Below, piece by piece: positions 6,067 to 28,843 of a DNA stretch of 32,000 nt (positions are counted from its first letter, which is position 1; every line of letters starts with the position of its first letter). Source of the DNA: Polynucleobacter paneuropaeus (GTDB lineage Bacteria; Pseudomonadota; Gammaproteobacteria; Burkholderiales; Burkholderiaceae). Location of the stretch: positions 1,779,988-1,811,987 of the forward strand of contig NZ_CP030085.1 in NCBI RefSeq assembly GCF_003261235.1. The letters run 5' to 3'. Under the pieces are notes generated by a model, which was not told the origin of the DNA, did not search any database, and was given only the letters and a program-made list of their open reading frames with translations. The position numbers and the translations under genes were made by a program.

Positions 6067-6090
6067 CGGCCATTCTAGACGCTATTAATG

Positions 6091-6683: not shown

Positions 6684-6726
6684 GGGGCTCTCCTAGTGTG
6701 CTTTCTGTACTCTACGCCCATAAAAG

Positions 6727-7040: not shown

Positions 7041-7043
7041 GGG

Positions 7044-7406
7044 TTATTTAATTAGCGCCTCTACAAGACGCTCAAACATGTCATCTTCATTCATACCCGC
7101 ATAATCGCCAATTAGATGTTTAGTGATTGAACTTTCTATTTCATCCTTATCAGGCGTATTAAATAACGCTTCAACTTCATCCTCGTCATCAGCTACAACA
7201 TAGTGCCCAAGATTAAAGTCATAGATCTCCCCTTCGAATTCAACTTTTGAAGTAATGATCATTTCATCCCTTCCTTCGCGCAGGCCTGCTTTATTCCAGT
7301 AGAGAATTAAATTCTCATAAAAGTCATCTACTGATTTAACTTCAAATGAACCAAAGTAGCTGTCATTATTAAAATTTCTTGAGGCATGCAAATCAAATTT
7401 TTTCAT
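7044..7406 (-). CDS. Hypothetical acidic protein
   Basis: ORF 7044..7421. The ATG at 7404-7406 (MKKFDLH...) has GGAG about 10 nt upstream. Asp/Glu-rich. No family recognised. Confidence 0.6.
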   Translation of the reverse strand: MKKFDLHASRNFNNDSYFGSFEVKSVDDFYENLILYWNKAGLREGRDEMIITSKVEFEGEIYDFNLGHYVVADDEDEVEALFNTPDKDEIESSITKHLIGDYAGMNEDDMFERLVEALIK

Positions 7407-7644
7407 AGCAATTTTCTCCAAATATTTTTCTTATTCTATCTCCGCTAGATATCAATACTAGCTATACCTCTCATCCCGATAGTCACAAAAATCAATTTAG
7501 TCCAAAAGATTACTAAAAATTCCCTGAATTCATACCAAATCGCCTGATTTTCAAAATAAGAATTATTACGAATACGAGGTGGGGTTAGATTAGATCACCA
7601 GGGGCCGAGATCTCCACTGGCGTTGAAAATTGCGCGGTAAATTT

Positions 7645-8025
7645 TTAGGGCTTGCTACTGATCGGCTTAATAGCCTGTTGGTGATGCTGGCGATCTTTCT
7701 CGAGCTTTAATTGTTGTTTTGCTGAATCTACATTACGCCTAAGAGAGGTAACTCTTGCCTGCTTGAGATTCATTGTCTTAATAGGCTTAATCATTTTGAT
7801 AGCTTCATCTACAGTAAGCGCATCTTCATCCTCAGACAAGCTGGGGGCAGATGCCAAACTATTCATACCAAATTGATATTGCAGAATCAGCCGCGCATGG
7901 ATCTGACTATCGGCAAATACTGCTGTTTTAACTTGATGACCATTGATACGGACAAGGGCTTGATATTTGTTCATACAAATATTTATAGTCTCGGCGCCCC
8001 TCGGGTCTTTTAAATCATGTCGCAT
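7645..8025 (-). CDS. Hypothetical protein
   Basis: 126-aa ORF, co-oriented with its neighbours. No family recognised. Confidence 0.5.
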   Translation of the reverse strand: MRHDLKDPRGAETINICMNKYQALVRINGHQVKTAVFADSQIHARLILQYQFGMNSLASAPSLSEDEDALTVDEAIKMIKPIKTMNLKQARVTSLRRNVDSAKQQLKLEKDRQHHQQAIKPISSKP

Positions 8026-8257
8026 TCGGCTCTTTGCCAGCTGGCTCGCCTCTGCGATGGGGGCTTCAGCCCACCCATCTTTTCCAAAACGTGCACCACG
8101 TGGTGCTGGAAAATGATGGTCTTCTCTGTCCTAAGCGCACCAGCTGGTGCAGGACATTCGTCTTAGGCTTCGCTGGATCGGTGGCGACAGCTATCGCCAC
8201 CTATGGGGCTACCTTGCGGTGCGCCCCATATATAAATGTCCTTTAAAAGGACAAACA
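8026..8257. other. GC-rich, multi-hairpin intergenic element, possible structured RNA or ssDNA element
   Basis: 37 of 60 nt are G/C in 8041-8100 by hand count, against an AT-rich background. Six consecutive palindromes/hairpins (coordinates in findings), ending with GTCCTTTAAAAGGAC at 8238-8252. Confidence 0.5.
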
Positions 8258-8695
8258 TCAACGGCCAAAGCCCGCACGTACAGCGCCGCTTGCGGCTTCA
8301 ATTTGAGTATCAAGCTCACCCGCCTCTACGGCGACCTTAATAATCTCTAGGGCTTTAATCAGCTCCTCTGCTGAATTCACTTCTACAGCAGTTTTACCTT
8401 TAGCAAACTCAATGATCTTGGCACCATAGCGGATGTTTAAGCAAACTTTGCCATCCATAGCAACAAACCACCACTGACGAATACGCTTTTCATGTTCAAT
8501 GGTTTTACGTGCACCAGTGATGTCTTTAACTGTTTTGAATTTCTTAACAGTAAATGTGCCGCCTTCTTTGCTGGCTTTAGCTAACTGGATCTGCTCCCAG
8601 ACTTTGTTGGCTAATTTATTACGACGATGTAGTACTGGCGGTATAGCTGTTGGCTTTTTTGAATTAACCATTTTCAAACTGTTTAATGTGCTCAT
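8258..8695 (-). CDS. Hypothetical protein
   Basis: 145-aa ORF. No confident family assignment. Confidence 0.6.
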   Translation of the reverse strand: MSTLNSLKMVNSKKPTAIPPVLHRRNKLANKVWEQIQLAKASKEGGTFTVKKFKTVKDITGARKTIEHEKRIRQWWFVAMDGKVCLNIRYGAKIIEFAKGKTAVEVNSAEELIKALEIIKVAVEAGELDTQIEAASGAVRAGFGR

Positions 8696-9360: not shown

Positions 9361-9999
9361 CTATCTATCTATTTCAATAAATTCAATATTTCTTCCTGAT
9401 ATTGAATTAAATTCTTCAATACAAGTTTCTCTTAAATCCTCAATTCGCTCATCCATTTCTTGGAACGACATGATGTCATCCCTGCTTAAGTCAGTTTCTT
9501 CTTCTAATACATCATCAATATCGTCGATATCACATGACCAGCTATAGCTTAATTCTTCTTCCTCTTTGTGCTCAATGAATCCAAGTAATTTGTCAAAACA
9601 GACAATTCTTGTACCAATTAAATGGGGGTTATTGTCCTTATAATCCATCTGAACTACAACATCGGGATCTATGATTGAAGCGCACTTAGCAATATGATCT
9701 TGTAACTTTTCAGGGGCGATATTTTTACTTTCAAACTCAAGCTTATGGGTTGAACCAAAATACCAGCAACCATGAGCTCCAAGTAATTCACCACCATCAA
9801 ATTCATCCCCTTTACTCATGCCATAAAGTATTCTTGTGACAGCAGAATATCTCTCCGCATTTTTATCAAACGAGTATGTTCCAGAGCTATCTGTATTTTT
9901 ATCGAAATCATTCTTAAATCTTCGGATAATTTCTTTTTCTAATTCACGAATTTTTTCATTGCCATAAAAAGTAAACGTGCTTTCTACAGGTGTAGACAT
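9361..9999 (-). CDS. Hypothetical highly acidic protein
   Basis: 212-aa ORF. The C-terminal third is very Asp/Glu-rich (DIDDIDDVLEEETDLSRDD...). Confidence 0.6.
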   Translation of the reverse strand: MSTPVESTFTFYGNEKIRELEKEIIRRFKNDFDKNTDSSGTYSFDKNAERYSAVTRILYGMSKGDEFDGGELLGAHGCWYFGSTHKLEFESKNIAPEKLQDHIAKCASIIDPDVVVQMDYKDNNPHLIGTRIVCFDKLLGFIEHKEEEELSYSWSCDIDDIDDVLEEETDLSRDDIMSFQEMDERIEDLRETCIEEFNSISGRNIEFIEIDR

Positions 10000-10316
10000 T
10001 TTTCACCTCAAATTAAATTTGTTTAAGTAACTATAGCTAATTTTTATAACAACAGAATAGTTTTAAGCGGAAATCTTTCAAGCTCGCTGGCTTGGGTGGC
10101 TGAGCCAAAATTTAAAACGCTTATAGGTCGTTTTAAAAGGTCATCAAAATATCGTGGCGAAAATGCCACGATAAATATAAGAGAACAGTACTACTCTTAT
10201 ATTTTTGCCTAACTCATTGATAAAAAAGTACTTCTTTTTCAGCCATTTTCGGTTGCCCAAACCGAATCTAAGAAAACATACTGTAGTTCTGTATTTAATA
10301 TATTTGAGGAGAAAGT

Positions 10317-10883
10317 ATGTCACAAGCTAGAGTTTTAAATCCACAGGAACTACGCCGAGTTTTAGACCATGTTGCTACACGTAGGCATTCAGCACGTAAT
10401 CGCGCTATGTTGCTGTTAACGCACTACGCGGGTATGCGAGTCGCTGAAGTAGCCGCACTACGCATAAACGACGTTTTAAACGGCGACAGTACTATTAAGG
10501 GTGAAGTGCGCTTAATGCCCGAACAAACCAAGGGCAAACACCCTCGTACTGTTTACTTAAATGAACGGATGCAAAAGGAGCTGGCGCAGTACATCAAAGT
10601 AATCAAAATCAAAGATGCAACGAAACCCTTGTTTTATACACAGAAACAGGCGGGGTTCTCATCCAACTCTTTGACCCAGTACTTCTTTTACCTTTATCGC
10701 AATGTCGGCCTAGCTGGATGTAGCTCACATTCAGGTAGAAGGTCTTTTTTAACTGGACTTGCCAATAAAGGCACAGCGATTCATATATTGAAATCTCTCG
10801 CTGGGCACCGCAACATCAGCACCACCGCCACCTATCTCTACAGCAGTCCCGATCAACTCAAAGCCGCAGTAGAGCTAATTTAA
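10317..10883 (+). CDS. Small tyrosine recombinase (catalytic domain only, FimB/FimE-size)
   Basis: 188-aa ORF with GGAG upstream. Catalytic signature: AGMRVAEV (Arg), HSGRRSF (His-x-x-Arg), LAGHRNISTTATYLY (His...Tyr). Confidence 0.85.
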   Translation: MSQARVLNPQELRRVLDHVATRRHSARNRAMLLLTHYAGMRVAEVAALRINDVLNGDSTIKGEVRLMPEQTKGKHPRTVYLNERMQKELAQYIKVIKIKDATKPLFYTQKQAGFSSNSLTQYFFYLYRNVGLAGCSSHSGRRSFLTGLANKGTAIHILKSLAGHRNISTTATYLYSSPDQLKAAVELI

Positions 10884-11222
10884 CTATTTGGAGAAGTCGC
10901 TAAACACTTCTCCAGTGTATTTGTCATTAACCCTTGCTGTCTTTAAGTTGACAGTAAAAGCCAATCCTCTTGTGGCAAGTCGATGACCAAACCACTTACA
11001 CAGAACCTCAACTCTAGTTGCATTGTTCTTTCCATCAAGAATAAGTACTTGATCACCAAGCAAGAAAGTGCCACTAAATGTTGAACGCCTATATTTCGCA
11101 TCGGTAACATCAATTACACGAGCATTCTTAACCTTTATAGGCTTTATAGGCTTCGCTAATTTTGTAGTGTGAGGAATATCACTTTCCTCTTCCCACACTG
11201 GTGCTTTGTAATAGAAATCCAT
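10884..11222 (-). CDS. Hypothetical protein
   Basis: 112-aa ORF convergent with the recombinase. No family recognised. Confidence 0.5.
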   Translation of the reverse strand: MDFYYKAPVWEEESDIPHTTKLAKPIKPIKVKNARVIDVTDAKYRRSTFSGTFLLGDQVLILDGKNNATRVEVLCKWFGHRLATRGLAFTVNLKTARVNDKYTGEVFSDFSK

Positions 11223-11285
11223 ATAACCCTCATATTTGCTTACAAGTTGTTATTAGGATATCAAATTTGTCCTTTTAAAGGGCAT

Positions 11286-12050
11286 TTACTGTGCGGGGAA
11301 TTTACCTAGAACCACATTCTCAATTATTAGCTCGGCACCACTTAGATACCTTTTTACGCTTGAGCCCATAGTGTTCCTCCTTGCGGCATTTATAGCTGGA
11401 AAGAGCTTTGGAGAAGTCATTGCTTTGGGGATTAAAGTTAAGCTCTCACCTATCTTCCAATTGGGCACTTTTGGCTTCTTTCCTTTGTGCTTCATGTATT
11501 CATCATATACATCTAAGGTTTTCTCTAAATTTTGTACTGTGTAATTTCTAGCCAATTGATACTTGGCATTACTTTTAGTTGATCCCTTAGTTGGTCTACC
11601 ACGTCCTGCCGTATGGCGCTCTTTTAATAGTTGTGCAAAACGACTTTGTAAATACCTTTTACTAGACGTTAGTGGTACAGCAAGAATCATCACCTCATCT
11701 TTGCTCCAACCATCTTGCCACTGTGACTTATCTTCCAGCTCTGTTAATTTCATTGCCCCATAGTTTTCGGCGAATAAATTCGGTCCTCGCTCGTCCTTAG
11801 TCCACCACTTGTGAAAGTCATCATCTCTCACATCTCCAAAGTCTTTATATAGCTCGGCATGTTTTCCTTTGCCGCCACGCTCACAACACTCTAAATATTC
11901 TTGATTACGGCGTAAGAACTGCCACCACCAGTAATAAGGACTGCGCTTTTGATATCCAAGTGGCAGTCTTTTGTTTTTTGTACCAAATATAGGGTACGGA
12001 GCTAGGAATCTTCTTGGCATTTTCTTGGCATGTAAATTGCAGGAATTCAT
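11286..12050 (-). CDS. Hypothetical regulator-like protein; the WWWQFLRRNxEY motif resembles the proteobacterial transcriptional-regulator-like domain DUF6499 seen in integrative elements
   Basis: 254-aa ORF. The motif YYWWWQFLRRNQEYLE is recalled from DUF6499/DUF2285-type ICE regulators (memory-based, unverified). Confidence 0.6.
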   Translation of the reverse strand: MNSCNLHAKKMPRRFLAPYPIFGTKNKRLPLGYQKRSPYYWWWQFLRRNQEYLECCERGGKGKHAELYKDFGDVRDDDFHKWWTKDERGPNLFAENYGAMKLTELEDKSQWQDGWSKDEVMILAVPLTSSKRYLQSRFAQLLKERHTAGRGRPTKGSTKSNAKYQLARNYTVQNLEKTLDVYDEYMKHKGKKPKVPNWKIGESLTLIPKAMTSPKLFPAINAARRNTMGSSVKRYLSGAELIIENVVLGKFPAQ

Positions 12051-12156
12051 AATCGTATCAGAAATATACCCGTTCTGCGTTCTAATTTAATTATGGCCAA
12101 GCGGTTAAATTTCTTAACAAGCAGTCATATTTCTTAATACAGAAAGAGAGTTAAAA

Positions 12157-12939
12157 ATGAATGCATTATTAAACGCAGTAGATACAACCCCTGTTACAAC
12201 AAACGTCCTTTTAAAGGACACAGCCAAAGTAACTAACGTTGCTGTTGGTACTACCGTTGCCCTTACTAATATGGAAGCAAATCGTATTAACTGGGAACAA
12301 GGTGCCTACAGAACAAGTAATCAAGCCTTATATGCAGTATTAGGCGATTGCTTGGCTTTTTGTGGTGATATGACACTTCCAGAAGCTAAACAACGTAGCG
12401 CATCTTTAGAGTCTTTCTATAAGGATCGCGGCTACACATATAAAAAGGATCTCCCATTAGCGACACGTGTAGTACGTGCAGTTTTTGGATCAAGAGATCG
12501 CCGTCGTATTAGCACCTACTCTTTGGTTATTCGTCAGGCAATGAAAGAGAAAGTTTTGATAGCTGACTTTTCAGCGTGGGTGGAAGAGCGTGGCGGGGTT
12601 CAAGAGATCAGTCTTGGCAAGAGCGCTACTTACATCAAGCCTGCGGACAAAGCTGAGATTGCTAAAAGCAATCTAAAAGGCAAAACACCGATTGGCTATG
12701 CCAAGTCTGAATTGCTCTCACATGTTGCTGATGCTCAGTACCTAGGCGATATGTGCGTACTTTTAGCAGAGCAACAAGCTGATGGCAGTTTTGGTGTCTA
12801 TGCAGTTTTGCGTCAAGACGGACTGGTTAAGTCTGCCTTTACCTCTTTGTATGCGGTTGGCAAAGAGCTTGAAGACAAAGCCAAAGCAGAGATCAAAGCG
12901 GCAAATGATGCTGATGGTGCGGTTGCTAAATCAGCTTAA
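12157..12939 (+). CDS. Hypothetical protein
   Basis: 260-aa ORF with an AAGAGAG-type RBS. It contains an in-frame copy of the GTCCTTTTAAAGGAC palindrome at 12205-12219 (encodes VLLKD). Confidence 0.65.
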   Translation: MNALLNAVDTTPVTTNVLLKDTAKVTNVAVGTTVALTNMEANRINWEQGAYRTSNQALYAVLGDCLAFCGDMTLPEAKQRSASLESFYKDRGYTYKKDLPLATRVVRAVFGSRDRRRISTYSLVIRQAMKEKVLIADFSAWVEERGGVQEISLGKSATYIKPADKAEIAKSNLKGKTPIGYAKSELLSHVADAQYLGDMCVLLAEQQADGSFGVYAVLRQDGLVKSAFTSLYAVGKELEDKAKAEIKAANDADGAVAKSA

Positions 12940-12957
12940 TTAATCAAGGGGAATGTT

Positions 12958-13677
12958 ATGAGCGTTCCCCATTCTTATTTGAAAGGAATACAAATGTTTA
13001 CGAAAGGAAATAATCATGAGCCTAAAACAATTGATGACATCATCTTTGGAAATAATGAATCTAAATTGCGGATTGAAGATATTGTCTCGGGTGCCGAAGA
13101 ATTACCTTACAGCGGCAAATCAGCCATTCTTTTATACGGAGTCTTTGGGACAGGCAAAACCACACTGGCCAAAATGCTACCTAACCACATTGAATATGGC
13201 AAAACTAAAGAAGAGTTAGTTTGGGATCCAGTGTTTATAGGCTGTCAGCAGGGCTTTAATGGGCCACAGCTAATGACTAAGATTGATGCAATCATGACAA
13301 CAATGTCGCTAAACGTCAGCGGCCTTCATTACTTCATCCTTGATGAGGTGGATAACTTAACCAAGCTGGCGCAACAAAGTTTGAAAACGGCCTTGAATAC
13401 GACATTAGGTGTATTTGTGCTCACAACAAACAATGTTTCTCAATTAGATAAGGGCATGTTAGATCGTTGCATCTTAGTTGAGATGAATGCGGCAAATCCG
13501 AATGCTTATTTGGATATTGCCAAATCCATTGCCAATGAAACAGGAGTCACTTTATCTAATGATGAGCTTCTACCAACTATTCAGGCCGCCAATGGATCAT
13601 TTCGTAACTTGTTTCATAACGTGGGGCGCTTGGCTAGACGTAAGGCGGAAAAGGTGCCACCTAATGCTATCTACTAA
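12958..13677 (+). CDS. AAA+ ATPase, clamp-loader/RFC-like
   Basis: 239-aa ORF. Walker A GVFGTGKTT, Walker B ILDEVDNL followed by AQQSLKTALN (RFC box V-like), and LDRCILVEM (SRC-motif-like). Confidence 0.8.
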   Translation: MSVPHSYLKGIQMFTKGNNHEPKTIDDIIFGNNESKLRIEDIVSGAEELPYSGKSAILLYGVFGTGKTTLAKMLPNHIEYGKTKEELVWDPVFIGCQQGFNGPQLMTKIDAIMTTMSLNVSGLHYFILDEVDNLTKLAQQSLKTALNTTLGVFVLTTNNVSQLDKGMLDRCILVEMNAANPNAYLDIAKSIANETGVTLSNDELLPTIQAANGSFRNLFHNVGRLARRKAEKVPPNAIY

Positions 13678-13687
13678 GGAGGGAACT

Positions 13688-13873
13688 ATGGAATCAGCAT
13701 GGATTGTCTTTCTTGCAGACGATGATGAATTTGTTATTGAAGTCTTTGATAACGAAAAGGCGGCCATTGATTGCTTTAAGTACCACATTAGCTCTGCACC
13801 ATCAGCCACCTACATCGTTAGAATAGACCCAACAAACTTTCAGTCTACCTTTACCGTCCCACTTGAAGAGTAA
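13688..13873 (+). CDS. Small hypothetical protein
   Basis: ATG at 13688 preceded by AAGGAGG. It is the 3' part of ORF 13487..13873, whose upstream part overlaps the ATPase gene out of frame. Confidence 0.55.
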   Translation: MESAWIVFLADDDEFVIEVFDNEKAAIDCFKYHISSAPSATYIVRIDPTNFQSTFTVPLEE

Positions 13874-13880
13874 AGTTAAT

Positions 13881-13905
13881 AGCCCACTTCCGAGTGGGCT
13901 TTTTT
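13881..13905 (+). terminator. Rho-independent terminator
   Basis: AGCCCACT-TCCG-AGTGGGCT followed by TTTTT. Lies between the convergent genes 13688..13873 and 13904..15178. Confidence 0.8.
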
Positions 13906-15178
13906 ATGCCAACCTATCCGCCGCCATCGTTGCCGTCAACTTGCTGTAATGACGATCAATCATGGCGGCACTATTTCCCATCTGCTTAGATAGCGTATGT
14001 ATATCAGTCTTGTTCTCTAGTAGCTCCAAAGTAGCGTAGGTATGACGCAAGGAATATAAAGTACGCATCTGTCCGTCGTGACTCAATCCCAAGCCACTAT
14101 CTCGCATCAATCGCTTAAATGCGCCATCAATCCGCATGGGCTGGTGTCCGTTGGCAAAGACAAAGATCCGCTCGGGGCAACGAGTCTCAAACAATCTGTC
14201 AAATGGGATGTCGTACACAGCCTTTTGCCTACTGTGTAATCGCTTGAGAACGTCTACAGCTTTATGTTTGGCAATGAGCCAACGCCCTCCTGTCTTGCCA
14301 TCCACCCAAATACGTAGGTATTTCTTATCTCCCTGCGTGTGCCACTCAATATTATTCCAGCAGATATTCAGTGCTTCAGTGCCATGCCGCATGCCTGTGT
14401 ATAAGAGCATTTCCACATAATCTCGCAGTAGCGGACGAGTCTCATGCTCAATCTCTAATCGGCCTTGTTTAATCCATGGCTCCATAAACTCCAACAAGCG
14501 ATCAATCTCTTCACGAGTGAATGCTGGGCGGGTTTTACCCTTCTGCCCTCTAGCTGTGAGTTTGGGAATAGCTACTCGCTCGCTGATCCAGCCTTTGCTA
14601 ATAGCCACAAGCTGTAACTTAGTCCAAGCACTGGCAAAGTTCATTAGGGTGCTGGCACGAGGGATCTTATTCATCTGCCTATTACGCCAAACCTCAAACT
14701 CATGCACGTCTGTATAAGTTATTTCTTCTAGTCTTTTGTCCTGAAAGTAAGGTAGAAAGTATTTTTCAATACAGGTGATGTAGCTACCGTAGACACTTTT
14801 GCCTATACCCACATCCAAGTCTTGCCGCATTGAGTAGAGAGTGGCGTGTGCAATTTCTGCAAACGTGGGCGACTTTTGTGCAAGCCCCAGTCTTTGGCGA
14901 AATCTGGTTTCATCGTAAAGATCACAAGCCATTCGTACAGCGTGTTCAATGCTGGCTTGGCGCGTGGTCTGGCGATGCCATGAGCCATCTTGCAATCTAA
15001 AACGGCAATGCCAAAGTGGGCTTCCGGGTCTGCGGTGGATAACTACCTCGCCATCACGCAAGTAAAGCTCTGTGGGTTCGGCGTATTTGAGCTGGCTTAG
15101 GGCTGTGGGTTGGGATTCTTGGAGTGGTGAGGAGATTACTTCTAGGTGACTTTCAGGTACTTTGATTACCTTAGTCAC
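13904..15178 (-). CDS. int: Tyrosine integrase (phage-integrase family, P4-like size)
   Basis: 424-aa ORF. LYTGMRHGTE (Arg), LRHTYATLEL (box II His-x-x-Arg region), IDRHYSKL (catalytic Tyr). Confidence 0.9.
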   Translation of the reverse strand: MTKVIKVPESHLEVISSPLQESQPTALSQLKYAEPTELYLRDGEVVIHRRPGSPLWHCRFRLQDGSWHRQTTRQASIEHAVRMACDLYDETRFRQRLGLAQKSPTFAEIAHATLYSMRQDLDVGIGKSVYGSYITCIEKYFLPYFQDKRLEEITYTDVHEFEVWRNRQMNKIPRASTLMNFASAWTKLQLVAISKGWISERVAIPKLTARGQKGKTRPAFTREEIDRLLEFMEPWIKQGRLEIEHETRPLLRDYVEMLLYTGMRHGTEALNICWNNIEWHTQGDKKYLRIWVDGKTGGRWLIAKHKAVDVLKRLHSRQKAVYDIPFDRLFETRCPERIFVFANGHQPMRIDGAFKRLMRDSGLGLSHDGQMRTLYSLRHTYATLELLENKTDIHTLSKQMGNSAAMIDRHYSKLTATMAADRLA

Positions 15179-15318: not shown

Positions 15319-17829
15319 TTAGAGCAACTCCTTATTCTCAAAAGTAGCGGCATAATCTTCTGCACTCAAAACTGTGCTGAATAAACCAACATCCTCTCCA
15401 GCATGCTTATTGATCCCCACATAATTAAGACTAGCATCTTCATAACGCTTGAACTTATAAACAGCATCATTCATTAAGCCGCTATTAAATACACCTAGAC
15501 TAACCAATATTTCAAAATCTTTAACTGTTAATCCAGTTACTTTTTTAAACAAGCCTGGCTCCAGCTGAGTTATCACATCTTGTAAACTTCTCTCCCTATA
15601 GTCTGTTAGATACATAAAAACTGGAATACGAGTTGCAAACTTTATTAACTTCTCCTGTATCTGTTTACGAAGATTCTTATACTCCCTCTCCTCATCAGTC
15701 ATAGTCTTCTTATCTTTAGCTGAAGGTTCTTTTTTATTGGCCTCTTGCTTTATTTTTTTGACACTTTCTGACTTATTGATGATTGTTTCTATTTCTTGGT
15801 TGAGATTACGGAATCCTTCAATGCTCATCAAGGCCTTCATCGCATCCTTATTATTCATAAGTCGCTGAAGCGTTGAATTATCAACGTTTACCAAGAGGGC
15901 GCTTTCCCAGCGCCTAGCCAATAAAGTTGCAGTGGTTCCACTCATAGCCAAATCAAGTATTCCAGCCGCATCAATCTGCTTCATGGAAGAACCGTCATAT
16001 GCTAATACTGGTAAAAACTTAATAAACTCTTCCACCTTTTTTTCTGGATTACTTTCATTTACCTCTAAGCGACAACTGTAATCTGCTATCTGCTTAAGAG
16101 CTCGGTCTGGCGCGAAATCAAAAACATAACACTCCTCTTTAATGATTTGCTCTTTATTTGGGGATGTACTATCTGTATTTTTGATAGTCCAAGGTGTTTG
16201 GACTCTAAAGGCCGCTTGAAAATAAGTTTCGGGTGATGTTGTATTGCGCAACATAAAAATACCTGTCCAAGGCTTTACTGAGACGCCGGTAGTTAGCTTG
16301 CCGCAAGATAAGGTAATTGTTTTTGTTTTAAGTGGATCATCCATAGCCTCAAAAATAGGCGGCAATGCATCAACTCCAATTCCAGCACTGGGGCCTGCGG
16401 CTATGATGACTTCATAGTCGTTATAAAACTTATTTTGCTTCTGCTTAAGCAAGCTCCCCATTGCATAACATGAGGCAACTGTGGGAAGAAACCAGAAGGT
16501 ATGAGAAAGTAAGTTTAAAAGCCGCGCATGAGAAAATGGCATTGGAGGTTTTTTAGCCCCCAACTTTAAATTATCTATAGTAGTTTCGGAAAATGATCCT
16601 CGAATTAAATCAAGCCATTTTTGAACTTCATTTTCATATTTAAATTTTGCATTCTTACCTTCTCCATTTGCCGAAAAAAATACGTTTAAATCAAATTCGT
16701 CAAATTCACCCTCCATTGCTATACGCTTTATAGAATCGGGTAATTGGTATGTCATCAGTACCATTCTTGGTAATGCGGCATACGGGTTATTAGGCTTTAC
16801 CCAAGCCATTTTTGCACGTTGCTCATCGGAATACGTCCAATTGTAAATTTGTTCTTCAATGAACTCACCTGAGCCAATCGCCCTAAAAGGGGTGCCCGAC
16901 AGATAAAGATACGAATTTGTTGTAATTGGCATGACCTCTTCATCAAAATATTCAATTCCTTCACCCTCTGCAAACTTGATCTCTTTTTTATCTTCTGCTT
17001 CAAAAAGTTCTTTTGCACTTTCTCTCCAAGCGCCATAATGATATTCATCAAAAACAACGCAATCCCAATGCGTTGTGTGAACCCATTCATTTTTTGCTTT
17101 GATACCTCCTACAGAGTTTTTACCGAGGTAGTCTTGAAAGGAGCCAAAACATACAAATGGTTTATTCTTTTTTAAATCTTCATAGTGCAAACCATCACGC
17201 GAGAGAAATTGCCAATCAGCAAAATCAATATGATTTTTTAGATCCTCTTCCCATGCATTCTGAACTGCTGGCTTAAAAGTAAGTACGAGAACTTTCTTCC
17301 AGCTCATCTGTTTAGCCAGTTGATACGTAGCAAAAGTTTTACCAAATCGCATCTTCGCATTCCATAAAAAATGCGGCGTTTTACTTTTATTTTCACTAGA
17401 AAAACTTTTGAAATACGTAATAGTCTTGGAGACAGCTTCAGATTGCTCGGGACGCATGCCAAAATCCGCCGTTCTATTATCTTCTGAGAAGACGCCTGAT
17501 TTCACCGTAATAATTGCGGCCTTAACATCAGCTACATTGCATTTAAACCATTCCCCGTTAGGATTTTTAAATCCTTTCTTACGTAACACTCTATGAACAT
17601 CATGATCAGTAAATGAACCACCATCACTTTTCATAGCTGATTCTTCAAGCAAAATTTGGTACGGTAATTTACCTGGTGTTTTTAATGAATATATTTGTTT
17701 TAGCCGCGCCTGAGCGTTAATAGTTGTAAAGCCAACTTTGAGCAATCCATTAAATTGTGGATTGCTATCTTGATATGCATAAATGGTTGGGTTTGTATCA
17801 ACTTTTTTTGGAAAAAACTCATTTGCCAT
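15319..17829 (-). CDS. T5orf172 (GIY-YIG-like) nuclease domain fused to an SF2 helicase (Type III Res-like)
   Basis: 836 aa. N-terminus IYAYQDS..GLLKVGFTT...RLKQ...GEWF (T5orf172/MUG113 pattern). Helicase motifs MRFGKTF (I), VVFDEYH (II), LSGTPF (III), KLTTGVSV (V), QAAFRVQTP (VI-like). Start lies 1 nt after the MTase stop. Confidence 0.85.
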   Translation of the reverse strand: MANEFFPKKVDTNPTIYAYQDSNPQFNGLLKVGFTTINAQARLKQIYSLKTPGKLPYQILLEESAMKSDGGSFTDHDVHRVLRKKGFKNPNGEWFKCNVADVKAAIITVKSGVFSEDNRTADFGMRPEQSEAVSKTITYFKSFSSENKSKTPHFLWNAKMRFGKTFATYQLAKQMSWKKVLVLTFKPAVQNAWEEDLKNHIDFADWQFLSRDGLHYEDLKKNKPFVCFGSFQDYLGKNSVGGIKAKNEWVHTTHWDCVVFDEYHYGAWRESAKELFEAEDKKEIKFAEGEGIEYFDEEVMPITTNSYLYLSGTPFRAIGSGEFIEEQIYNWTYSDEQRAKMAWVKPNNPYAALPRMVLMTYQLPDSIKRIAMEGEFDEFDLNVFFSANGEGKNAKFKYENEVQKWLDLIRGSFSETTIDNLKLGAKKPPMPFSHARLLNLLSHTFWFLPTVASCYAMGSLLKQKQNKFYNDYEVIIAAGPSAGIGVDALPPIFEAMDDPLKTKTITLSCGKLTTGVSVKPWTGIFMLRNTTSPETYFQAAFRVQTPWTIKNTDSTSPNKEQIIKEECYVFDFAPDRALKQIADYSCRLEVNESNPEKKVEEFIKFLPVLAYDGSSMKQIDAAGILDLAMSGTTATLLARRWESALLVNVDNSTLQRLMNNKDAMKALMSIEGFRNLNQEIETIINKSESVKKIKQEANKKEPSAKDKKTMTDEEREYKNLRKQIQEKLIKFATRIPVFMYLTDYRERSLQDVITQLEPGLFKKVTGLTVKDFEILVSLGVFNSGLMNDAVYKFKRYEDASLNYVGINKHAGEDVGLFSTVLSAEDYAATFENKELL

Positions 17830-17830
17830 A

Positions 17831-19342
17831 TCAATCTTCCATTGGCTTTATTTTATTAGAAATATGCGTTATTTCATCTTTCGTTAAGCCGTATCTTTCA
17901 TACAAATCTTTCTCAGACCATTTTTTCTTCATCGACAAACTAGGTGCGAATAAAAATCTATCTTTTGTTATATCTTGTGAAAATGACATTTGAGCCACAA
18001 GGAACCTAACAAATTTCGTTTTTAGATAAGAGGCTAAATTTTCTGCCTCCTCTTTATTGTCAAATGCACCAGCAACTAAATAGGTTTCAGTACATACGTA
18101 ATCAGGTGGTAAAACATCAACAATGGAAAGAACTTTCCGCATCCCTTGTTTGTCAGGCTGTCCAGCATGGTCATATGAAACTTTTGATGTAATTACTTTC
18201 CACTTATTAATTAATTCAAAACCTGTTGTGATTTCACTCTTTTTAAAAGGGCCTTCGCCACCATTCCACCTCAAAATTAGGTCACCAGTTTTAGTTGGCC
18301 TGATATTTGTAGATAGGCCAAATGGTTTTCTACTTGAGACTTGTTTACTTAAGGAAAGGTCTTTCTTTTGATTTACTTTTCGGATGATGGAAATTGCATT
18401 GCTATCTCTAATTAAAGTATTAAATTCATTTAGCGATCTAGTGGATTTTGTGGTCAATCCACTATTAATAGTTGTAACTTCACAGTCTCCAGCATGGTCA
18501 CGAGACCAAAGAAAATAACAAATACCCCCAGCAATATCAACACCTGGAAAACAATCTGAAGCGTTTGGAAAATCAATTAAATGGCTGAGCCTATTATCAT
18601 TCAACATTGAATTTCTAAATTCATCAAGCCCTTTACCACCAGCAAACCATCTTGACGGAACAATCATTGAAATAAATCTAGGATTTAATTTAATGGCCTG
18701 TTCAATAAACTTGTGATACAAAGGTGAGGCACTTTTCCCAAAGCCTCCATCGTTTAACTGGTATGGTGGATTGCCAACTATTACATCAAATTTCATATCA
18801 AAAATTTCCTCTGGCGATTCAGTGTGAATAAATTGATAGGCATGGGTCTCAAGCTCACTACCTCGATTATGAACCTCAATACTTGCTCCGCAGAAGGTGC
18901 ACTTATTGTTTTTCCATACGTGCTCAACTCTATCAAATTTAATATTGCCCTCAACATTTTTAAATCTATTTACTAATGAGTATTTGCCATTTGCATTTTT
19001 TGAACAATAAAGTGATCTTCTAGAAAGTAGTGAGGTTAATTCCGTGATAGCTATTCCAAATACTTGATTGGTCAATATATGGTTAATTCTTTTTTCTTTA
19101 TCAGGTATTACTTTTGCTAAACCAACATCTAGCCTCTTAACTATTTCGCGGAGGAAAACTCCCGTCTTACTCACTGGATCCAAAAAGGTTGTTTCAGTAC
19201 TTTTCCACAGACTTAAGGGCAATAAATCTAAAATTTGATTTGCTAATACTGGGGGAGTGAAGACTTCATCATTGCTTAGATTGGCTATGCATGTCAGCAC
19301 GTCTGGGTTATAGGTTGTGTTAACGCTCATTTGTAACACCAA
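17831..19342 (-). CDS. Eco57I/TaqI-family N6-adenine DNA methyltransferase
   Basis: 503 aa. VFTPPVLANQILDLL (motif X), FLDPVSKTGVFL (motif I variant), DVIVGNPPYQ (motif IV). Confidence 0.85.
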   Translation of the reverse strand: MVLQMSVNTTYNPDVLTCIANLSNDEVFTPPVLANQILDLLPLSLWKSTETTFLDPVSKTGVFLREIVKRLDVGLAKVIPDKEKRINHILTNQVFGIAITELTSLLSRRSLYCSKNANGKYSLVNRFKNVEGNIKFDRVEHVWKNNKCTFCGASIEVHNRGSELETHAYQFIHTESPEEIFDMKFDVIVGNPPYQLNDGGFGKSASPLYHKFIEQAIKLNPRFISMIVPSRWFAGGKGLDEFRNSMLNDNRLSHLIDFPNASDCFPGVDIAGGICYFLWSRDHAGDCEVTTINSGLTTKSTRSLNEFNTLIRDSNAISIIRKVNQKKDLSLSKQVSSRKPFGLSTNIRPTKTGDLILRWNGGEGPFKKSEITTGFELINKWKVITSKVSYDHAGQPDKQGMRKVLSIVDVLPPDYVCTETYLVAGAFDNKEEAENLASYLKTKFVRFLVAQMSFSQDITKDRFLFAPSLSMKKKWSEKDLYERYGLTKDEITHISNKIKPMED

Positions 19343-19997
19343 AATAACTTGTTAAAGGATAGTCCTTTACTGGTGTTGGAATGAAAACTCCATCACCCAT
19401 ATCAGAAAACAATGGCAATGATTCAATTTCTGCATGGATTAGCAATCCTTCAAATGAATAATCGCGTCGCTTTACGAACCCCTCTGTTGCTGGTGACCAC
19501 TCTGAAAATACAATTGGTTTTGGTGGATTCGACGCTGTTTGAAACGTCAATGCATCACCCCAAACAATATTCTTACTCAAAATAAACTCTATTGAGTTAA
19601 TGCATTCTTCTCTTTTATTACTCTTGTATGATTTATCATAAAATTCAATGAATTTATTGAGCAATCTTTTTCTGCAATCAACAACATTATCTTCAAGAAT
19701 GTCTATGCCATAAAGGCTTGAAACGGCAATAATCGAATAGCATTCAAACTCAGTTTGACTCTTTTTGTATCTTGACTCCACTGTCGCCAATTTTCTAGTT
19801 AATATTTCTATCAAAAAGTTACCATGCCCACATGCTGACTCTAAAAATCTTGAGTCAATTCGTTCTGTTTCATGCTTGACTAAATCAAGCATTGCGTTTA
19901 CCTCACGAGGGTTTGTATAAACCTCACCATGGTTAGTGACCCGATTTCTAGAAACAACTTGGGAATCGAGCGGTTCCTGTTTTAACTGGTTACTCAT
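19320..19997 (-). CDS. Methyltransferase-like protein lacking a canonical NPPY (degenerate N-lobe paralog)
   Basis: 225 aa. VYTNPREVNAMLDL (motif X), FLESACGHGNFL (motif I), LYGIDI (II), WGDAL (III), and only SNPPKP where motif IV is expected. Overlaps the next ORF by 23 nt in another frame. Confidence 0.7.
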   Translation of the reverse strand: MSNQLKQEPLDSQVVSRNRVTNHGEVYTNPREVNAMLDLVKHETERIDSRFLESACGHGNFLIEILTRKLATVESRYKKSQTEFECYSIIAVSSLYGIDILEDNVVDCRKRLLNKFIEFYDKSYKSNKREECINSIEFILSKNIVWGDALTFQTASNPPKPIVFSEWSPATEGFVKRRDYSFEGLLIHAEIESLPLFSDMGDGVFIPTPVKDYPLTSYFGVTNER

Positions 19998-20110
19998 TTA
20001 TATTTTTTTATTTCTCTAATTTGCCTTCTACAGCCTTATTGTCTAGTCAGGCTAACCTTGTTTAATGCTTTAACTATCATTTTGCGTTATTTGGCACGTG
20101 TAATCAATTT

Positions 20111-20127
20111 TGTCGTTTTAAACGACA
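20111..20127. repeat. 17-nt perfect palindrome TGTCGTTTTAAACGACA
   Basis: Lies in the divergent intergenic region between 19997 and 20203. The same 17-mer occurs at 21803-21819, 23517-23533 and 26818-26834. Confidence 0.9.
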
Positions 20128-20202
20128 TTATTAGTTAAGGGGCTCATCTAGTGAGCTTCTGGTCTCATATTCTGACTATTCGCCATAACTTAGGGGATAG
20201 TC

Positions 20203-20517
20203 ATGAAATTTCTTATTACCTTGTTCTTGATAGCTCAGCTTGGACTCTTTGTTCGCAACTCTAGCGCACAAGTAGCAAATTTCGATAACTCGCCATACAA
20301 CATGCAAAACAGCCCCTACAACATGGATAACTCGCCGTATAACATGCGTAATAGCCCTTACAACATGGATAACAGCGCGTACAACGCTAACTCAAAAAAT
20401 GGGGTTTATGACAACTCAGGCAATCGTATTGGCTATGAGGTTAAGGCGCCAAGTGGAGTAACAAATTACTTTGACAACTCAGGTAATAGGATTGGCTATA
20501 CGCCATCAAAACGATAA
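20203..20517 (+). CDS. Small secreted repeat protein: five NS(P/A)YN heptad-type repeats (four NSPYNM, one NSAYNA) and DNSGNRIGY x2
   Basis: 104-aa ORF with a signal peptide (...VRNSSA-QV), five tandem 21-nt repeat units and two copies of DNSGNRIGY. Confidence 0.7.
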   Translation: MKFLITLFLIAQLGLFVRNSSAQVANFDNSPYNMQNSPYNMDNSPYNMRNSPYNMDNSAYNANSKNGVYDNSGNRIGYEVKAPSGVTNYFDNSGNRIGYTPSKR

Positions 20518-20831: not shown

Positions 20832-21800
20832 ATGGGTGATATGGAGCGGCTACATAGAATTAAGTACATGATTCAAGCGCGCCATTGCGTTTCGCTTGAC
20901 GAGTTTCTATCTGAGCTAGAAATATCAAAAGCAACCTTTAAGCGCGACTTAGAGTATTTGCGAAGCCGCATGAATGCGTCAATTGTTTACGATAGATTTA
21001 AGGGCGGGTACTGCTTTGATTCTGCCGTAATTGGTGAAAAAATTGAATTGCCTGGGCTTTGGTTTTCTGAAAAAGAGGCTACAGCATTAGTTCTAATGCA
21101 ACACCTCTTATCTGGCCTCGATAAAGGCGGCCTAATAGAGCCACACATTGCCCCATTAACCTCAATCATTGATGGCATTTTAGGTCAAAGCAACACTCCG
21201 ACAAAAGAACTGCGTAAGAGATTAAAAGTATTTGGAATGTCGGCGCGTAAAGGCTCTATCGAAAATTTTGAAGAGGTTGGTAACGCCCTCCTCACTCGCA
21301 AGAGACTTCATATTACTTACTATGCTCGTGGTAAAGATGAAACTACTAAGCGTGAAATTTCCCCACAACGATTAATCTTTTATAGAGATAACTGGTATCT
21401 AGATGCCTTCTGTCATCTACGAAAAGATTTACGTAGCTTTGCTGTCGACTGTATTAGCAAAGCAATCATTACCAACTCAAAGGCAGATGAGATTTCCGAA
21501 AAGCAATTACATGAACACTTTGCAGAGAGCTATGGAATATTCTCTGGCAAAGCTAGTCAACGCGCCAAGCTAAAGTTCTCACCTGAAAAAGCTAGATGGG
21601 TTAGTAGTGAAACATGGCATGGTCAACAAGTTGGAGCTTTCGATAAGGAAGGTAACTACCTTCTAGAATTTGATTACAACCAAGACCCAGAATTGGTAAT
21701 GGATATTTTGAAGTATGGAGCAGGCGTTGAAGTTCTGGCGCCAACAAGTCTTCGTAAACGAGTTAAAGATGAGGCTACAAAAACATTAGCTTTGTATTAA
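20832..21800 (+). CDS. YafY-family HTH + WYL-domain transcriptional regulator (BrxR/CapW-like architecture)
   Basis: 322 aa. N-terminal HTH (ISKATFKRDLEYLR) and central FYRDNWYLDAFC (WYL signature). Confidence 0.85.
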   Translation: MGDMERLHRIKYMIQARHCVSLDEFLSELEISKATFKRDLEYLRSRMNASIVYDRFKGGYCFDSAVIGEKIELPGLWFSEKEATALVLMQHLLSGLDKGGLIEPHIAPLTSIIDGILGQSNTPTKELRKRLKVFGMSARKGSIENFEEVGNALLTRKRLHITYYARGKDETTKREISPQRLIFYRDNWYLDAFCHLRKDLRSFAVDCISKAIITNSKADEISEKQLHEHFAESYGIFSGKASQRAKLKFSPEKARWVSSETWHGQQVGAFDKEGNYLLEFDYNQDPELVMDILKYGAGVEVLAPTSLRKRVKDEATKTLALY

Positions 21801-23240: not shown

Positions 23241-23404
23241 AGCGTCGCTTAAATCGACGCTTGACCAACGCAGGGATGACAAATCCCCAATTCATAAACC
23301 GTCCTTTTAAAGGACGGTTCTAGTTAAGGAGGGCATTGGAAGACCTAGGGGAAATAGTGCCAGATCCTGTCAAGCCATAAAAGAAAAACCACCCGAAGGT
23401 GGTT
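23241..23404 (-). repeat. Composite repeat (modules A-B-C-X'-hairpin) lacking the tRNA-like core
   Basis: AGCGTCGCTTAAATCGACGCT (23241-23261), TTGACCAACGCAGGGATGACAAATCCCC (23261-23288), GTCCTTTTAAAGGAC (23301-23315), GGGGAAATAGTGCCAGA, hairpin CCACCCGAAGGTGG (23389-23402). Confidence 0.8.
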
Positions 23405-23630: not shown

Positions 23631-23714
23631 AAAAGAAAATAGCCCAGCAAGTGGGCTATTGAGATTCTTGGTGGCCCGGGGCGGAATCGAACCAGGGCCG
23701 AGAATGTCTGACTC
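23631..23714 (-). repeat. T-element copy 9
   Basis: Hairpin ATAGCCCAGCAAGTGGGCTAT; core at 23669-23708. Confidence 0.9.
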
Positions 23715-26817: not shown

Positions 26818-27079
26818 TTGTCGTTTTAAACGACATTACAAGCACCGACCATGGACGAGCGTCTCTTAAATAGACACTGACCAGCACAGGGATGACAAAT
26901 CCCCTCGTTCAACAAACGTCCTTTTAAACGACATTCCGAGTCAAGGGAAGAGCTGGAAAACCAAGGGGAAATGGTGCCAGACCGCGGCTAACACTAGAGA
27001 TTCGATGGACCACTTCTAATGTTCGGAGAATTCTTGGTGGCCCGGGGCGGAATCGAACCAGGGCCGAGGATGCCCAATC
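26818..27079 (-). repeat. Full composite repeat (palindrome P, A', B, C', X, T) including T-element copy 10
   Basis: TGTCGTTTTAAACGACA (26818-26834), GTCTCTTAAATAGAC (26860-26874), CTGACCAGCACAGGGATGACAAATCCCC (26876-26903), GTCCTTTTAAACGAC (26917-26931), X module, core at 27035-27073. Confidence 0.85.
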
Positions 27080-27402: not shown

Positions 27403-28626
27403 TTAAACCGCTGTGACTTTAACAGTCTCAACAATATTTCGCATATAGCCAGCCGGCATCCAACTTGCAGTCATCGGCTGAACTTGGCCAGCATGATTGA
27501 ATGCTCTAACCCTCAAGTCCAACATCCCTTTTTGTTTTGGCGTAAATTCAATGCGCCACTCTCTAAATGAGAAGCGACCTAGATCTTGGCCCAATCTTGC
27601 TTCTGTCCAATTTTGTCCATTGTCCTGCGAGAACAACACTTTCTTTATTCCAAAGCCAGCATCAAAGGCAATGCCTCGAGCTTGAACCGGCTTACCAACA
27701 GTGACAACGCTATTGTCTGTGAAGTTCGTAATGAATGAGCGGATAGTGAACTGATTAATAGGAATCGTTTTAGAAGGAGCAGTTCCAGGCGCAACACAGT
27801 TACAGTCATTATCAGGAATACGATAAGCAGGATTCATCCAGTAGCCGTTATAAACATCATCAACTACTTGTATTTCACTCAGGTGCTTAACCCAATAGGT
27901 TCCGTAGTAGCCGGGAACAATTAACTTGATTGGATAACCATTTAAGAAAGGAATATCTGTTCCATTCATTTGATAGGCAACCATGACATTGCCATCCATC
28001 GCGTGATCAATGTCCAAACCTTTTACGAAGTCTGAATCACTTGGCAATACTGGTTGATCTAAGCCATCAAAGGTCACTTGCTTGGCACCTCGACCAGGAT
28101 TGGCCGCCTTCAAAATATCCTTTAAGGCAACACCAACCCAAGCGGCATTACCCATGGCGCCATTACCAAGTTGCCCACCATTAACTCTAGGCTCAAATAA
28201 GCCACGACTATTACCAGAGCATTGATTAACAGCAACAATACGTTGAGCTGGAAAGTTTTTCTTTAAAGACTCCAGAGAAATCTCTAAAGGCTTTTCTACA
28301 TTGCCACCAACTTTTAGCCGATAAGTTTTAGGGTCAATGGATGTTGGAATGCCAGCCATGTGATAACGCACAAAGAATTCATCATTTGGCGTAATGACAT
28401 GATTGTCGTAATACTTAAATGGGGTTTCTAATTGCGGCGGCCGAGAAGTCAACACAATCATGGGCTTCTTTTCAGGAAAGGCCATGAGTTCGCGCTCACC
28501 ATAGGCTATGGGTAAATTCGTTTTCTCTACACCCATTGCCCAGGATGGCAATAATGAACTGGCTCCACCAGCCAAGGCCGCTGTAATGACTTTACGTCTA
28601 TTGGTAAAGTTTTCTGAATTCATCAA
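27403..28626 (-). CDS. sorA: Sulfite dehydrogenase / sulfite-oxidase-family molybdopterin subunit (SorA-like)
   Basis: 407 aa. Tat leader (NRRKVITAALAGGAS), a Mo-ligand cysteine context (NQCSGNSRG) and a C-terminal dimerisation-domain-like region. The start may be TTG 28626 or ATG 28623. Confidence 0.85.
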   Translation of the reverse strand: MMNSENFTNRRKVITAALAGGASSLLPSWAMGVEKTNLPIAYGERELMAFPEKKPMIVLTSRPPQLETPFKYYDNHVITPNDEFFVRYHMAGIPTSIDPKTYRLKVGGNVEKPLEISLESLKKNFPAQRIVAVNQCSGNSRGLFEPRVNGGQLGNGAMGNAAWVGVALKDILKAANPGRGAKQVTFDGLDQPVLPSDSDFVKGLDIDHAMDGNVMVAYQMNGTDIPFLNGYPIKLIVPGYYGTYWVKHLSEIQVVDDVYNGYWMNPAYRIPDNDCNCVAPGTAPSKTIPINQFTIRSFITNFTDNSVVTVGKPVQARGIAFDAGFGIKKVLFSQDNGQNWTEARLGQDLGRFSFREWRIEFTPKQKGMLDLRVRAFNHAGQVQPMTASWMPAGYMRNIVETVKVTAV

Positions 28627-28740
28627 TGTCTCCTCCGCCCATAGCTATCTGGGCATCATGTTGATCTGGATCAATATAGCCCATAAAGATAGTGCGTACG
28701 GGTAGGAGATACCCGCATAGACAGTGCCTTTATCACCAGC

Positions 28741-28812: not shown

Positions 28813-28843
28813 GCTTTATATTTAAGCCGCTTTAATGTGAGGT

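Follow-up and report, generated by a model that had tools for sequence, protein, structure and literature searches.

A widespread three-gene restriction-modification-type operon with an apparently split methyltransferase in Polynucleobacter paneuropaeus

The stretch of Polynucleobacter paneuropaeus DNA considered here, called the window, comprises 32,000 nucleotides (nt) of contig NZ_CP030085.1 (assembly GCF_003261235.1, positions 1,779,988 to 1,811,987, forward strand) and is numbered from its first letter. At 15319-19997 it carries three closely packed minus-strand genes, for a small protein with methyltransferase motifs, an Eco57I-type DNA methylase, and a protein that joins a nuclease domain to a helicase-like motor. 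The operon is real, intact and of restriction-modification type, and it probably specifies an ATP-dependent system built on the logic of Type I and Type ISP enzymes. An original prediction, made from the sequence and its open reading frames (ORFs), had seen in it a non-canonical, Type III-like or novel helicase-nuclease defense system. We describe it in terms of four modules: S, the small protein; N', a degenerate half-methylase; C, the methylase from motif IV onward together with the target-recognition domain (TRD); and H, the nuclease-motor. Their positions are as follows (aa, amino acids; SF2, superfamily 2).

19320-19997, minus strand: S gene, a 225-aa ORF
17831-19342, minus strand: N'-C methyltransferase subunit gene, 503 aa from a TTG at 19342 or 499 aa from an ATG at 19330
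19010-19309, minus strand: N', aa 12-111, a degenerate paralogue of S by hhalign
18884-19009, minus strand: Cys/His cluster, aa 112-153, with C113, H141, C148 and C151 invariant
17834-18796, minus strand: C, aa 183-503, made of a catalytic half starting MKFDVIVGNPPY, a variable target-recognition region and a conserved C-terminal end
17918-18745, minus strand: exchangeable specificity cassette, about aa 200-475, with the post-NPPY catalytic motifs and the TRD
15319-17829, minus strand: H gene, an 836-aa ORF
17509-17784, minus strand: T5orf172 (GIY-YIG superfamily) nuclease domain, aa 16-107, Pfam E 2.6e-9
16030-17460, minus strand: SF2 helicase-like ATPase core, aa 124-600, with GKT, DEYH, SGTP, TTGV and QAAFR
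15322-16029, minus strand: C-terminal region of H, aa 601-836, with a putative docking role

The three coupled ORFs lie exactly where the original prediction had placed them, and the 1-nt gap between methylase and H is borne out by the methylase stop codon (TGA, 17831-17833) and the H start codon (ATG, 17827-17829). The S and methylase genes do overlap, but the 23 nt first given apply to the TTG start only; from the ATG the overlap is 11 nt. An identical NCBI protein (P0241, 100%) is 499 aa long, matching the ATG at 19328-19330. P. paneuropaeus database proteins match both S and the methylase with 100% identity. The trio sits in a low-GC stretch (0.36-0.40, versus 0.41-0.47 over most other parts of the window) and is flanked by a tyrosine recombinase gene and a gene for a WYL-domain protein.

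The domain order of H is the one anticipated, with a T5orf172/GIY-YIG-type nuclease N-terminal to an SF2 motor. Pfam assigns the nuclease to T5orf172/MUG113 of the GIY-YIG superfamily (T5orf172 at aa 16-107) and matches ResIII at aa 124-280 (E 4.2e-8). All the motifs that had been reported are present in the window: GKT at 17335-17343, DEYH at 17038-17049, SGTP at 16888-16899, TTGV at 16282-16293 and the QxxFR motif, as QAAFR, at 16204-16218, together with NPPY of the methylase at 18761-18772. In an alignment that includes fused forms, residues Y17, K31, G33, R42, D75, E93 and W94 of T5orf172 are invariant down to about 30% identity, and so are the ATPase motifs. Distant relatives also match SNF2-rel_dom and SWI2_SNF2, and there was a weak motif-level match to the HsdR chain 3h1t (E 0.023). 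NCBIfam has no model for H, and its matches to the methylase and S are far below threshold. Nothing else in the system is as conserved as the region at aa 601-836 (mean pairwise distance 0.15), which in fused relatives runs straight into N' and is likely the docking region for N'. Another T5orf172 protein, Gp88 of ICP1, has been described as an origin-directed nuclease (PMC8263062).

The product of the first gene had been taken for a methyltransferase-like stub. It is instead a conserved, family-wide component with canonical S-adenosylmethionine (SAM)-binding motifs: X (HGEVYT), I (LESACGHGNFL, 19812-19844), II (YGIDI) and III (WGDAL), followed by a conserved beta-rich tail. Across the family alignment, HGEVyT, LE(P/S)ACGxGNFL, YGIDI and wGDAL are invariant or nearly so, the proteins are of uniform length (about 216-232 aa), and 795 clusters at 50% identity match S at E<=1e-30. 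Pfam yields a sub-threshold match to MmeI_Mtase alone (E 7e-5), and one homologue has been named "type III restriction endonuclease subunit M" by the annotation pipeline PGAP. An AlphaFold2 model of S (mean predicted local distance difference test score (pLDDT) 82, predicted template-modelling score (pTM) 0.77) shows a partial Rossmann fold that is compact alone and resembles the N-terminal part of class I methyltransferases; the best Foldseek match, to the CamA adenine methyltransferase, is weak (E ~0.1). Most likely, S is no gene fragment but the N-terminal half, responsible for SAM binding, of a gamma-class N6-adenine methyltransferase.

The attribution of the second protein to the Eco57I family holds: Pfam Eco57I covers aa 92-265 (E 1.3e-40), N6_Mtase matches weakly, and N6_N4_Mtase gave no Pfam match in the methylase. 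The beginning of this protein is related to S. By hhalign, aa 11-112 of S align with aa 12-111 of the methylase (probability 96.8%, E 2.8e-10), and on this sequence evidence N' is homologous to S, a degenerate paralogue of it. Motif X persists as DEVFTPP, motif I has become FLDPVSKTGVFL, following a pattern DPxxKxGVF in which an invariant Lys replaces the first Gly, motif II (FGIAI) has Ala at the acidic position, and motif III is not visible. Distant subfamilies have a still more degenerate N', of which "KxG" alone survives in the cross-subfamily alignment, and the SAM contacts of motifs II and III are missing in all subfamilies. The adjoining Cys/His cluster, possibly a zinc site to judge from its residues, is restricted to the present subfamily and missing from distant ones. 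The PADLOC profile PDLC03375 (348 positions), which matches the methylase as a unit at aa 183-501 only, agrees with C as a separate module.

H has more than 8000 database relatives. A pattern scan limited to one genome per species confirmed at least 569 relatives, and the best 80 of these are 73-80% identical to H and come from phyla that include Myxococcota, Planctomycetota, Cyanobacteria, Bacteroidota, candidate phyla radiation bacteria, Thermoplasmata and Woesearchaeota. Counting of the complete trio was confined to the 62 loci with at least 2.3 kb of sequence upstream of H. S and the methylase precede H on the same strand and in the same order in 58 of them, with genes overlapping or abutting (the S/methylase overlap is usually 4-23 nt). 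This recurrence is far above chance. The view of the trio as a restriction-modification-like operon is upheld. The other four loci, which lack S and the methylase, are decayed copies in which transposase, integrase or housekeeping genes lie beside a methylase fragment; the idea that they carry an alternative type of methylase was rejected, as they are decayed remnants. No neighboring family recurs in three or more of the 58 loci, hence there is no fourth conserved gene. The trio is found on plasmids of Rhizobium, Sphingopyxis, Deinococcus, Mycolicibacterium and Legionella, in integrase-bearing islands, and, complete, at 1694-6925 of the 64.8-kb Caudoviricetes genome of the human-gut phage NatCom_35866 (L093), whose H is 63% identical. 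A megablast search of the 4.7-kb locus against plasmids returned no match.

The modules occur in six arrangements. The first, S followed by N'-C and then H, is that of the window and of the large majority of loci. In the second, H, N' and C form a single chain of 1326-1456 aa, about 30% identical, still accompanied by a separate S gene; that such versions exist follows from the PADLOC profile PDLC03626 (1359 positions), which aligns to both proteins, positions 151-801 to H aa 118-757 (E 8.7e-33) and positions 864-1359 to methylase aa 20-501 (E 3.5e-40). Plasmids provided the examples found: the chain has 1326 aa in Lysinibacillus and 1456 aa in both Lactococcus cremoris (p1196B) and Enterococcus faecium. 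The third arrangement, in Lactiplantibacillus plantarum (L094), has an S-like gene, an H-N' fusion in which N' occupies residues 958-1051 of the helicase protein, and C as a free 334-aa protein starting MKFDVVVGNPPYQ. The fourth consists of an S-C fusion followed by H-N', in several gut-metagenome contigs (among them L103, L106 and L107). An H-N' form is also present in Bifidobacterium longum (L095), where an IS256 element separates the S-like and C genes. In the fifth (L097), S-C is directly followed by an H that lacks N', its T5orf172-helicase being 61% identical over the 237 residues available. In the sixth, S-C stands alone as an ordinary methylase with no helicase near; the N'-free complete methylases P0440, P0457, P0467 and P0448 are of this kind. 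S precedes C in every single contiguous methylase seen, and N' occurs, among the loci examined, only in helicase-linked systems, invariably placed where H meets the methylase. These two regularities are read most simply if S plus C make up the methyltransferase and N' is a former half-methylase, recruited to couple motor and methylase.

The single-chain forms with S lie at 2730-7100 of Lactococcus cremoris p1196B (L084) and 3929-8299 of E. faecium pEfmO_03 (L085). Their S genes encode 230-248 aa and are annotated "N-6 DNA methylase", and the Lactococcus single-chain protein has an additional N-terminal DUF4145 segment before the T5orf172-like domain. These dairy and clinical Firmicute plasmid members may be the easiest for phage-resistance testing.

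The modules have not evolved at one pace. Conservation of the methylase is high at aa 1-280 and falls to 0.43-0.6 at aa 281-460, as expected of a target-recognition region. When pairwise distances were compared over 59 loci (mirror-tree), S, N', the Cys/His segment and the three parts of H were found to co-vary (r 0.4-0.7). S does so with the nuclease domain of H (r 0.69) and with N', and hardly at all with C (r 0.10). Within C, the distances of the catalytic part (aa 183-280) correlate with those of the TRD (aa 281-460) at r 0.54, versus r 0.0-0.2 with the other modules. Loci L065 and L079 are 4-5% apart in S, N' and H but 44% apart in C, and L042 and L055 show the same pattern; it is reversed in L025 and L027, whose C differs by 9%, S by 33% and H by 20%. 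The breakpoints of exchange fall near NPPY (aa 185-205), where they coincide with the boundary between N' and C, and near aa 475. Independent distances and breakpoints together indicate that a C/TRD cassette is swapped by recombination on a conserved chassis. The mirror-tree comparison marks C as a separate evolutionary module only, and it does not discriminate binding of S to C from binding of S to H or to N'. Some 20 of 80 loci have one to three passenger genes inserted between methylase and H, with Pfam identities Bro-N, YhcG/DUF1016, RhuM, Fic, and AbiEii with DUF6088/AbiEi. In Type I systems, too, genes of the DUF1016, DinD/RhuM and Fic kinds are reported to lie between core genes (PMC9881135).

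Among known enzymes, the Type ISP proteins LlaGI and LlaBIII offer the closest parallel in domain order: nuclease, SF2 helicase-like ATPase, coupler, gamma-class adenine methylase and C-terminal TRD. Specificity in both cases shifts by exchange of C-terminal parts on a conserved N-terminal chassis, as described for LlaGI versus LlaBIII (PMC3553950). They differ in that the nuclease is of the T5orf172/GIY-YIG type here and of the Mrr/PD-(D/E)xK type in Type ISP, that three polypeptides with the methylase gene first replace a single polypeptide, and that a SAM-binding half-methylase, S, is added family-wide to a coupler that is itself a degenerate half-methylase. Sequence and profile searches against all PDB chains detected no similarity to LlaGI or LlaBIII (LlaGI, 5ffj, is in the PDB fold library), so the likeness is a resemblance of design and not a demonstrated membership. 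More generally, searches of PDB chains with H, the methylase, S and the fused Lactococcus protein gave nothing significant. Type I enzymes share with the present system the multi-subunit build, a nuclease N-terminal to an SF2/SNF2-like motor, exchangeable specificity determinants and passengers of the DUF1016/YhcG, DinD/Bro-N, RhuM and Fic kinds between core genes. In contrast to HsdR/HsdM/HsdS, there is no HsdS (no Methylase_S-type ORF lies in or beside the operon), the methylase, of Eco57I type and not HsdM, carries the TRD in its own chain, and the nuclease has another fold.

As for a subtype already named, profile searching did find one: PDLC03626, derived from REBASE, covers both H and the methylase, and the family is therefore already catalogued, as "Type IIG restriction enzyme-methyltransferase". 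That label ill suits a helicase-containing multi-subunit enzyme. Type IIG/IIL enzymes such as Eco57I and MmeI are ATP-independent single chains with a PD-ExK nuclease. They have in common with the present system an Eco57I-family methylase with C-terminal TRD, besides the profile label; here, however, there are a helicase with intact ATPase motifs, a T5orf172 nuclease and separate subunits, and the name is a cataloguing convenience. The methylase itself can be compared with the DNA methyltransferases that are split into two polypeptides, such as M.AquI and M.EcoHK31I. As in those enzymes, the motifs are spread over two products, X to III on S and IV onward on C, and the natural S-C fusions and free C support a split. 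The confounder is N', for unlike the known split enzymes the catalytic half or the helicase bears a second, degenerate N-terminal half, and assembly is tied to a nuclease-motor.

The searched literature contained no named system of this architecture, only the prediction concerning YeeA/B/C and a remark in the Type ISP paper. The latter, made in passing, mentions a GIY-YIG form as unstudied (PMC3553950). The former is due to Morgan et al. (2009), who predicted that the methylase, helicase and GIY-YIG cluster YeeA/YeeB/YeeC is a helicase-dependent restriction system (PMC2731913). This DnmA(YeeA)-YeeB-YeeC system of Bacillus subtilis and Vibrio crassostreae likewise combines a gamma-class methylase-TRD, an SF2 helicase and T5orf172/GIY-YIG in one operon. 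It consists of three proteins, of which the methylase is large and MmeI-like, the helicase stands by itself and the third has T5orf172 at its C-terminus. In the present operon, T5orf172 forms the N-terminal part of the helicase protein, the methylase is of Eco57I type and only about 500 aa long, and a half-methylase is added as partner; it is by architecture that the two are set apart. Judged by the searched literature, the T5orf172-motor R subunit, the apparently split methyltransferase, the degenerate half-methylase as probable coupler and the clean specificity cassette are new.

We favor, with reasonable though not high confidence, an ATP-dependent restriction-modification system of Type I/Type ISP logic, its four modules distributed over three polypeptides, with a methylase split between S and C and with N' as coupler. 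From the shared motifs and the arrangements of the modules we infer that S and C would assemble in trans into an active methyltransferase that marks the host's sites, and that N' would link H to this methyltransferase with its recognition module. At foreign sites that are unmodified and recognized by the TRD of C, H would hydrolyze ATP and move along DNA, and its N-terminal nuclease would cut; the system would act against phage. Specificity may diversify by recombination of C/TRD cassettes on the conserved S-N'-H chassis.

Several observations weigh against this scheme. The searched literature holds no experimental datum on any family member, and the loosely analogous B. subtilis DnmA-YeeB-YeeC system gave neither restriction nor protection from phage (PMC9973331). 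The S-C arrangement beside an N'-free H is known from one metagenomic contig only. The motor of H has no detectable close relative among the solved structures (all PDB chains), and the AlphaFold2 model of H, built from a shallow alignment, is poor (pLDDT 50), so that translocation, as opposed to sliding or switching, is assumed by analogy. The T5orf172 domain is the sole confidently modelled part (pLDDT about 75-87); Foldseek on the poor model retrieved generic SF2 helicases only (TM score about 0.15) and was not used. Finally, N' keeps motif X and, within motif I, the acidic residue, the Pro and the second Gly. In the window it is covalently joined directly before C, leaving the route of S to C unexplained.

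It is the last of these points that opens the most serious alternative. Given the remnants in N' and the contiguous Eco57I match, N'-C could be a complete and active methyltransferase by itself. S would then be a separate SAM-binding regulator (a SAM sensor or a licensing factor of the nuclease-motor), or a dimerization partner that mimics a second protomer. The Eco57I profile does cover aa 92-265 end to end, across motif X and the part of motif I that N' retains; the S model is compact alone, and S co-varies with the nuclease domain of H and with N' and not with C. Yet N'-free S-C fusions are complete methylases, one of them adjoining a helicase, the free C polypeptide starts at motif IV while N' can be attached to the helicase instead, and in no subfamily does N' have the SAM contacts of motifs II and III. 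We consider this alternative unlikely, if worth serious attention. One could also envision that C has two alternative N-terminal halves, a SAM-competent free S and a SAM-incompetent N' tethered on the side of the nuclease-motor. Exchange of the two would switch the system between S·C with SAM, for modification, and N'·C with H, for restriction. If so, the decision to methylate or to cut, possibly in response to phage-induced SAM depletion, would be set by the occupancy of a split active site. We know of no restriction-modification class that works by such a half-methylase switch, and regard the idea as decidedly speculative and rather improbable.

The Type I/Type ISP scheme has also to be set against the Type III-like reading of the original prediction. 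There, the 503-aa protein would be Mod and the 836-aa protein Res, cleavage would depend on ATP-switched one-dimensional sliding between inversely oriented sites, and the stub would be incidental. The two systems do share the order of a methylase gene followed by a helicase-nuclease gene, as in the mod and res genes of EcoP15I-like enzymes, and an SF2 ATPase in the R subunit. The ResIII match and the PGAP name of one S homologue point the same way. ResIII, however, is a generic SF2 N-lobe that is found in HsdR-like motors as well. Type III systems have a dimer of beta-class Mod with an internal TRD; here the methylase is gamma-class and Eco57I-type, has its variable region at the C-terminus and lacks an N6_N4_Mtase match. 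Their SF2 ATPase is N-terminal and their PD-(D/E)xK nuclease C-terminal, whereas the T5orf172 nuclease precedes the helicase, an order typical of Type I HsdR and of Type ISP and kept in the fused relatives. The family-wide occurrence of the stub is a further point against this reading, which we judge very unlikely. It fails on both of the defining Type III points that the analysis covered, and the system is no local novelty either; the general idea of a non-canonical helicase-nuclease restriction system was right. A further likeness to Type III is that the site is probably asymmetric and methylated on one strand.

Could the operon be a non-restricting relic or an epigenetic module, with a functionally orphan methylase and a helicase-nuclease that has no part in defense? 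The failure of the B. subtilis methylase/helicase/T5orf172 cluster to protect from phage or to restrict fits such a view, as do the four visibly decayed loci among the 62. The three ORFs are intact here, however, with every catalytic motif conserved, and the strong constraint on H across phyla, the exchange of TRD cassettes and the defense-type passengers indicate ongoing selection for changes of specificity. Moreover, deletion of the dnmA and yeeB homologues renders Vibrio crassostreae more sensitive to some phage subclades (PMC9973331). The chances of a relic appear slim. Slimmer still are those of a methylation-marked defense of the BREX or DISARM kind, in which phage replication is blocked without classical cleavage and T5orf172 binds DNA without cutting it: the methylase has weak profile similarity to PglX and T5orf172 has been called largely uncharacterized, with DNA-binding functions predicted (PMC9973331), but the GIY-YIG-type catalytic Tyr, Arg and Glu are invariant across the superfamily, other BREX/DISARM components are absent, and no neighbor is conserved across the 58 loci.

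The original prediction had the operon possibly under WYL control. The WYL gene (20832-21800) is divergent, starts 835 nt from the start of S with two small ORFs between, and encodes 322 aa with helix-turn-helix (HTH), WYL and WCX domains, which we take to be the architecture of BrxR/CapW-type regulators. By phmmer, a homologue lies near the trio in one of 80 related loci (L043, directly upstream and on the same strand), hence in two of 81 with the window included, and a 90%-identical relative has none. WYL was therefore rejected as a conserved regulator; local regulation of the trio is possible and would not be a feature of the system. S has its upstream region in common with a divergent small ORF. 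This region is

19998-20202, no strand: 205-bp region upstream of S

and contains a perfect palindrome, TGTCGTTTTAAACGACA (7+3+7, 20111-20127), possibly, from its sequence, an operator or a bidirectional terminator. No strong sigma-70 match was found within 19998-20202. The divergent ORF (20203-20517, plus strand, 104 aa) has a hydrophobic N-terminus, by reading a likely signal peptide, and four NSPYNM(D/Q/R) repeats. It is followed on the same strand by a 92-99-aa ORF and then by the WYL regulator gene.

On its other side the operon adjoins mobile-element genes at 9361-15178. They include genes for a 424-aa tyrosine recombinase (13904-15178, weak NCBIfam matches), a 188-aa Phage_integrase-domain protein (10317-10883) and an AAA ATPase (12958-13677), with DUF6641 (8258-8695) just beyond that range. 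The 188-aa integrase and DUF6641 are also found beside the 90%-identical trio in a metagenome contig (L088). A full-length match to the Rfam Polynucleobacter-1 RNA (RF01718; 8893-9032, plus strand, 83 bits, E 1.8e-16) lies at the edge of the integrase-gene island and accords with the Polynucleobacter origin of the window. Two intergenic repeats are dispersed over the window. One, of about 73 nt, consists of a hairpin AAAATAGCCCAACAAGTGGGCTATT followed by TGGTGGCCCGGGGCGGAATCGAACC and has nine copies (564-636, 1868-1940, 4583-4655, 5143-5215, 6091-6163, 6727-6799, 23636-23708, 30714-30786 and 31293-31365). The reverse complement of TGGTGGCCCGGGGCGGAATCGAACC looks like a tRNA 3' end (acceptor stem and T arm); ARAGORN found no tRNA gene in the window. 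To judge from this sequence, the repeat may be a tRNA-derived dispersed repeat or a set of att-like remnants. The other, of about 79 nt, has four copies ending in the hairpin GCGTCCTTTTAAAGGACGC (4439-4517, 23241-23319, 26858-26936 and 28738-28816). In addition, 1-4059 and 28187-30586 are a segmental duplication (83-93% identity) with paralogous genes for a TauE sulfite exporter and a metallo-beta-lactamase-fold protein, and a molybdopterin oxidoreductase gene (27403-28626) overlaps the start of the second copy.

The family represented in P. paneuropaeus is among the most widespread and conserved restriction-type cassettes traced, with members in at least 569 species genomes, in archaea and candidate phyla, on plasmids and in a gut phage, and apparently none has been studied biochemically. 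With its four modules fused, split and permuted, it amounts to a natural experiment in the assembly of ATP-dependent restriction enzymes. It places a nuclease other than PD-(D/E)xK on a translocase-like motor, and combines a methyltransferase active site that is apparently split with a degenerate duplicate that seemingly now serves as coupler. If S is needed for methylation, then annotations and methylome-to-gene assignments that call the 500-aa protein the methylase and take S for a fragment credit an incomplete enzyme. The clean boundaries of the cassette (about aa 200-475), in turn, suggest a route to the engineering of specificity.

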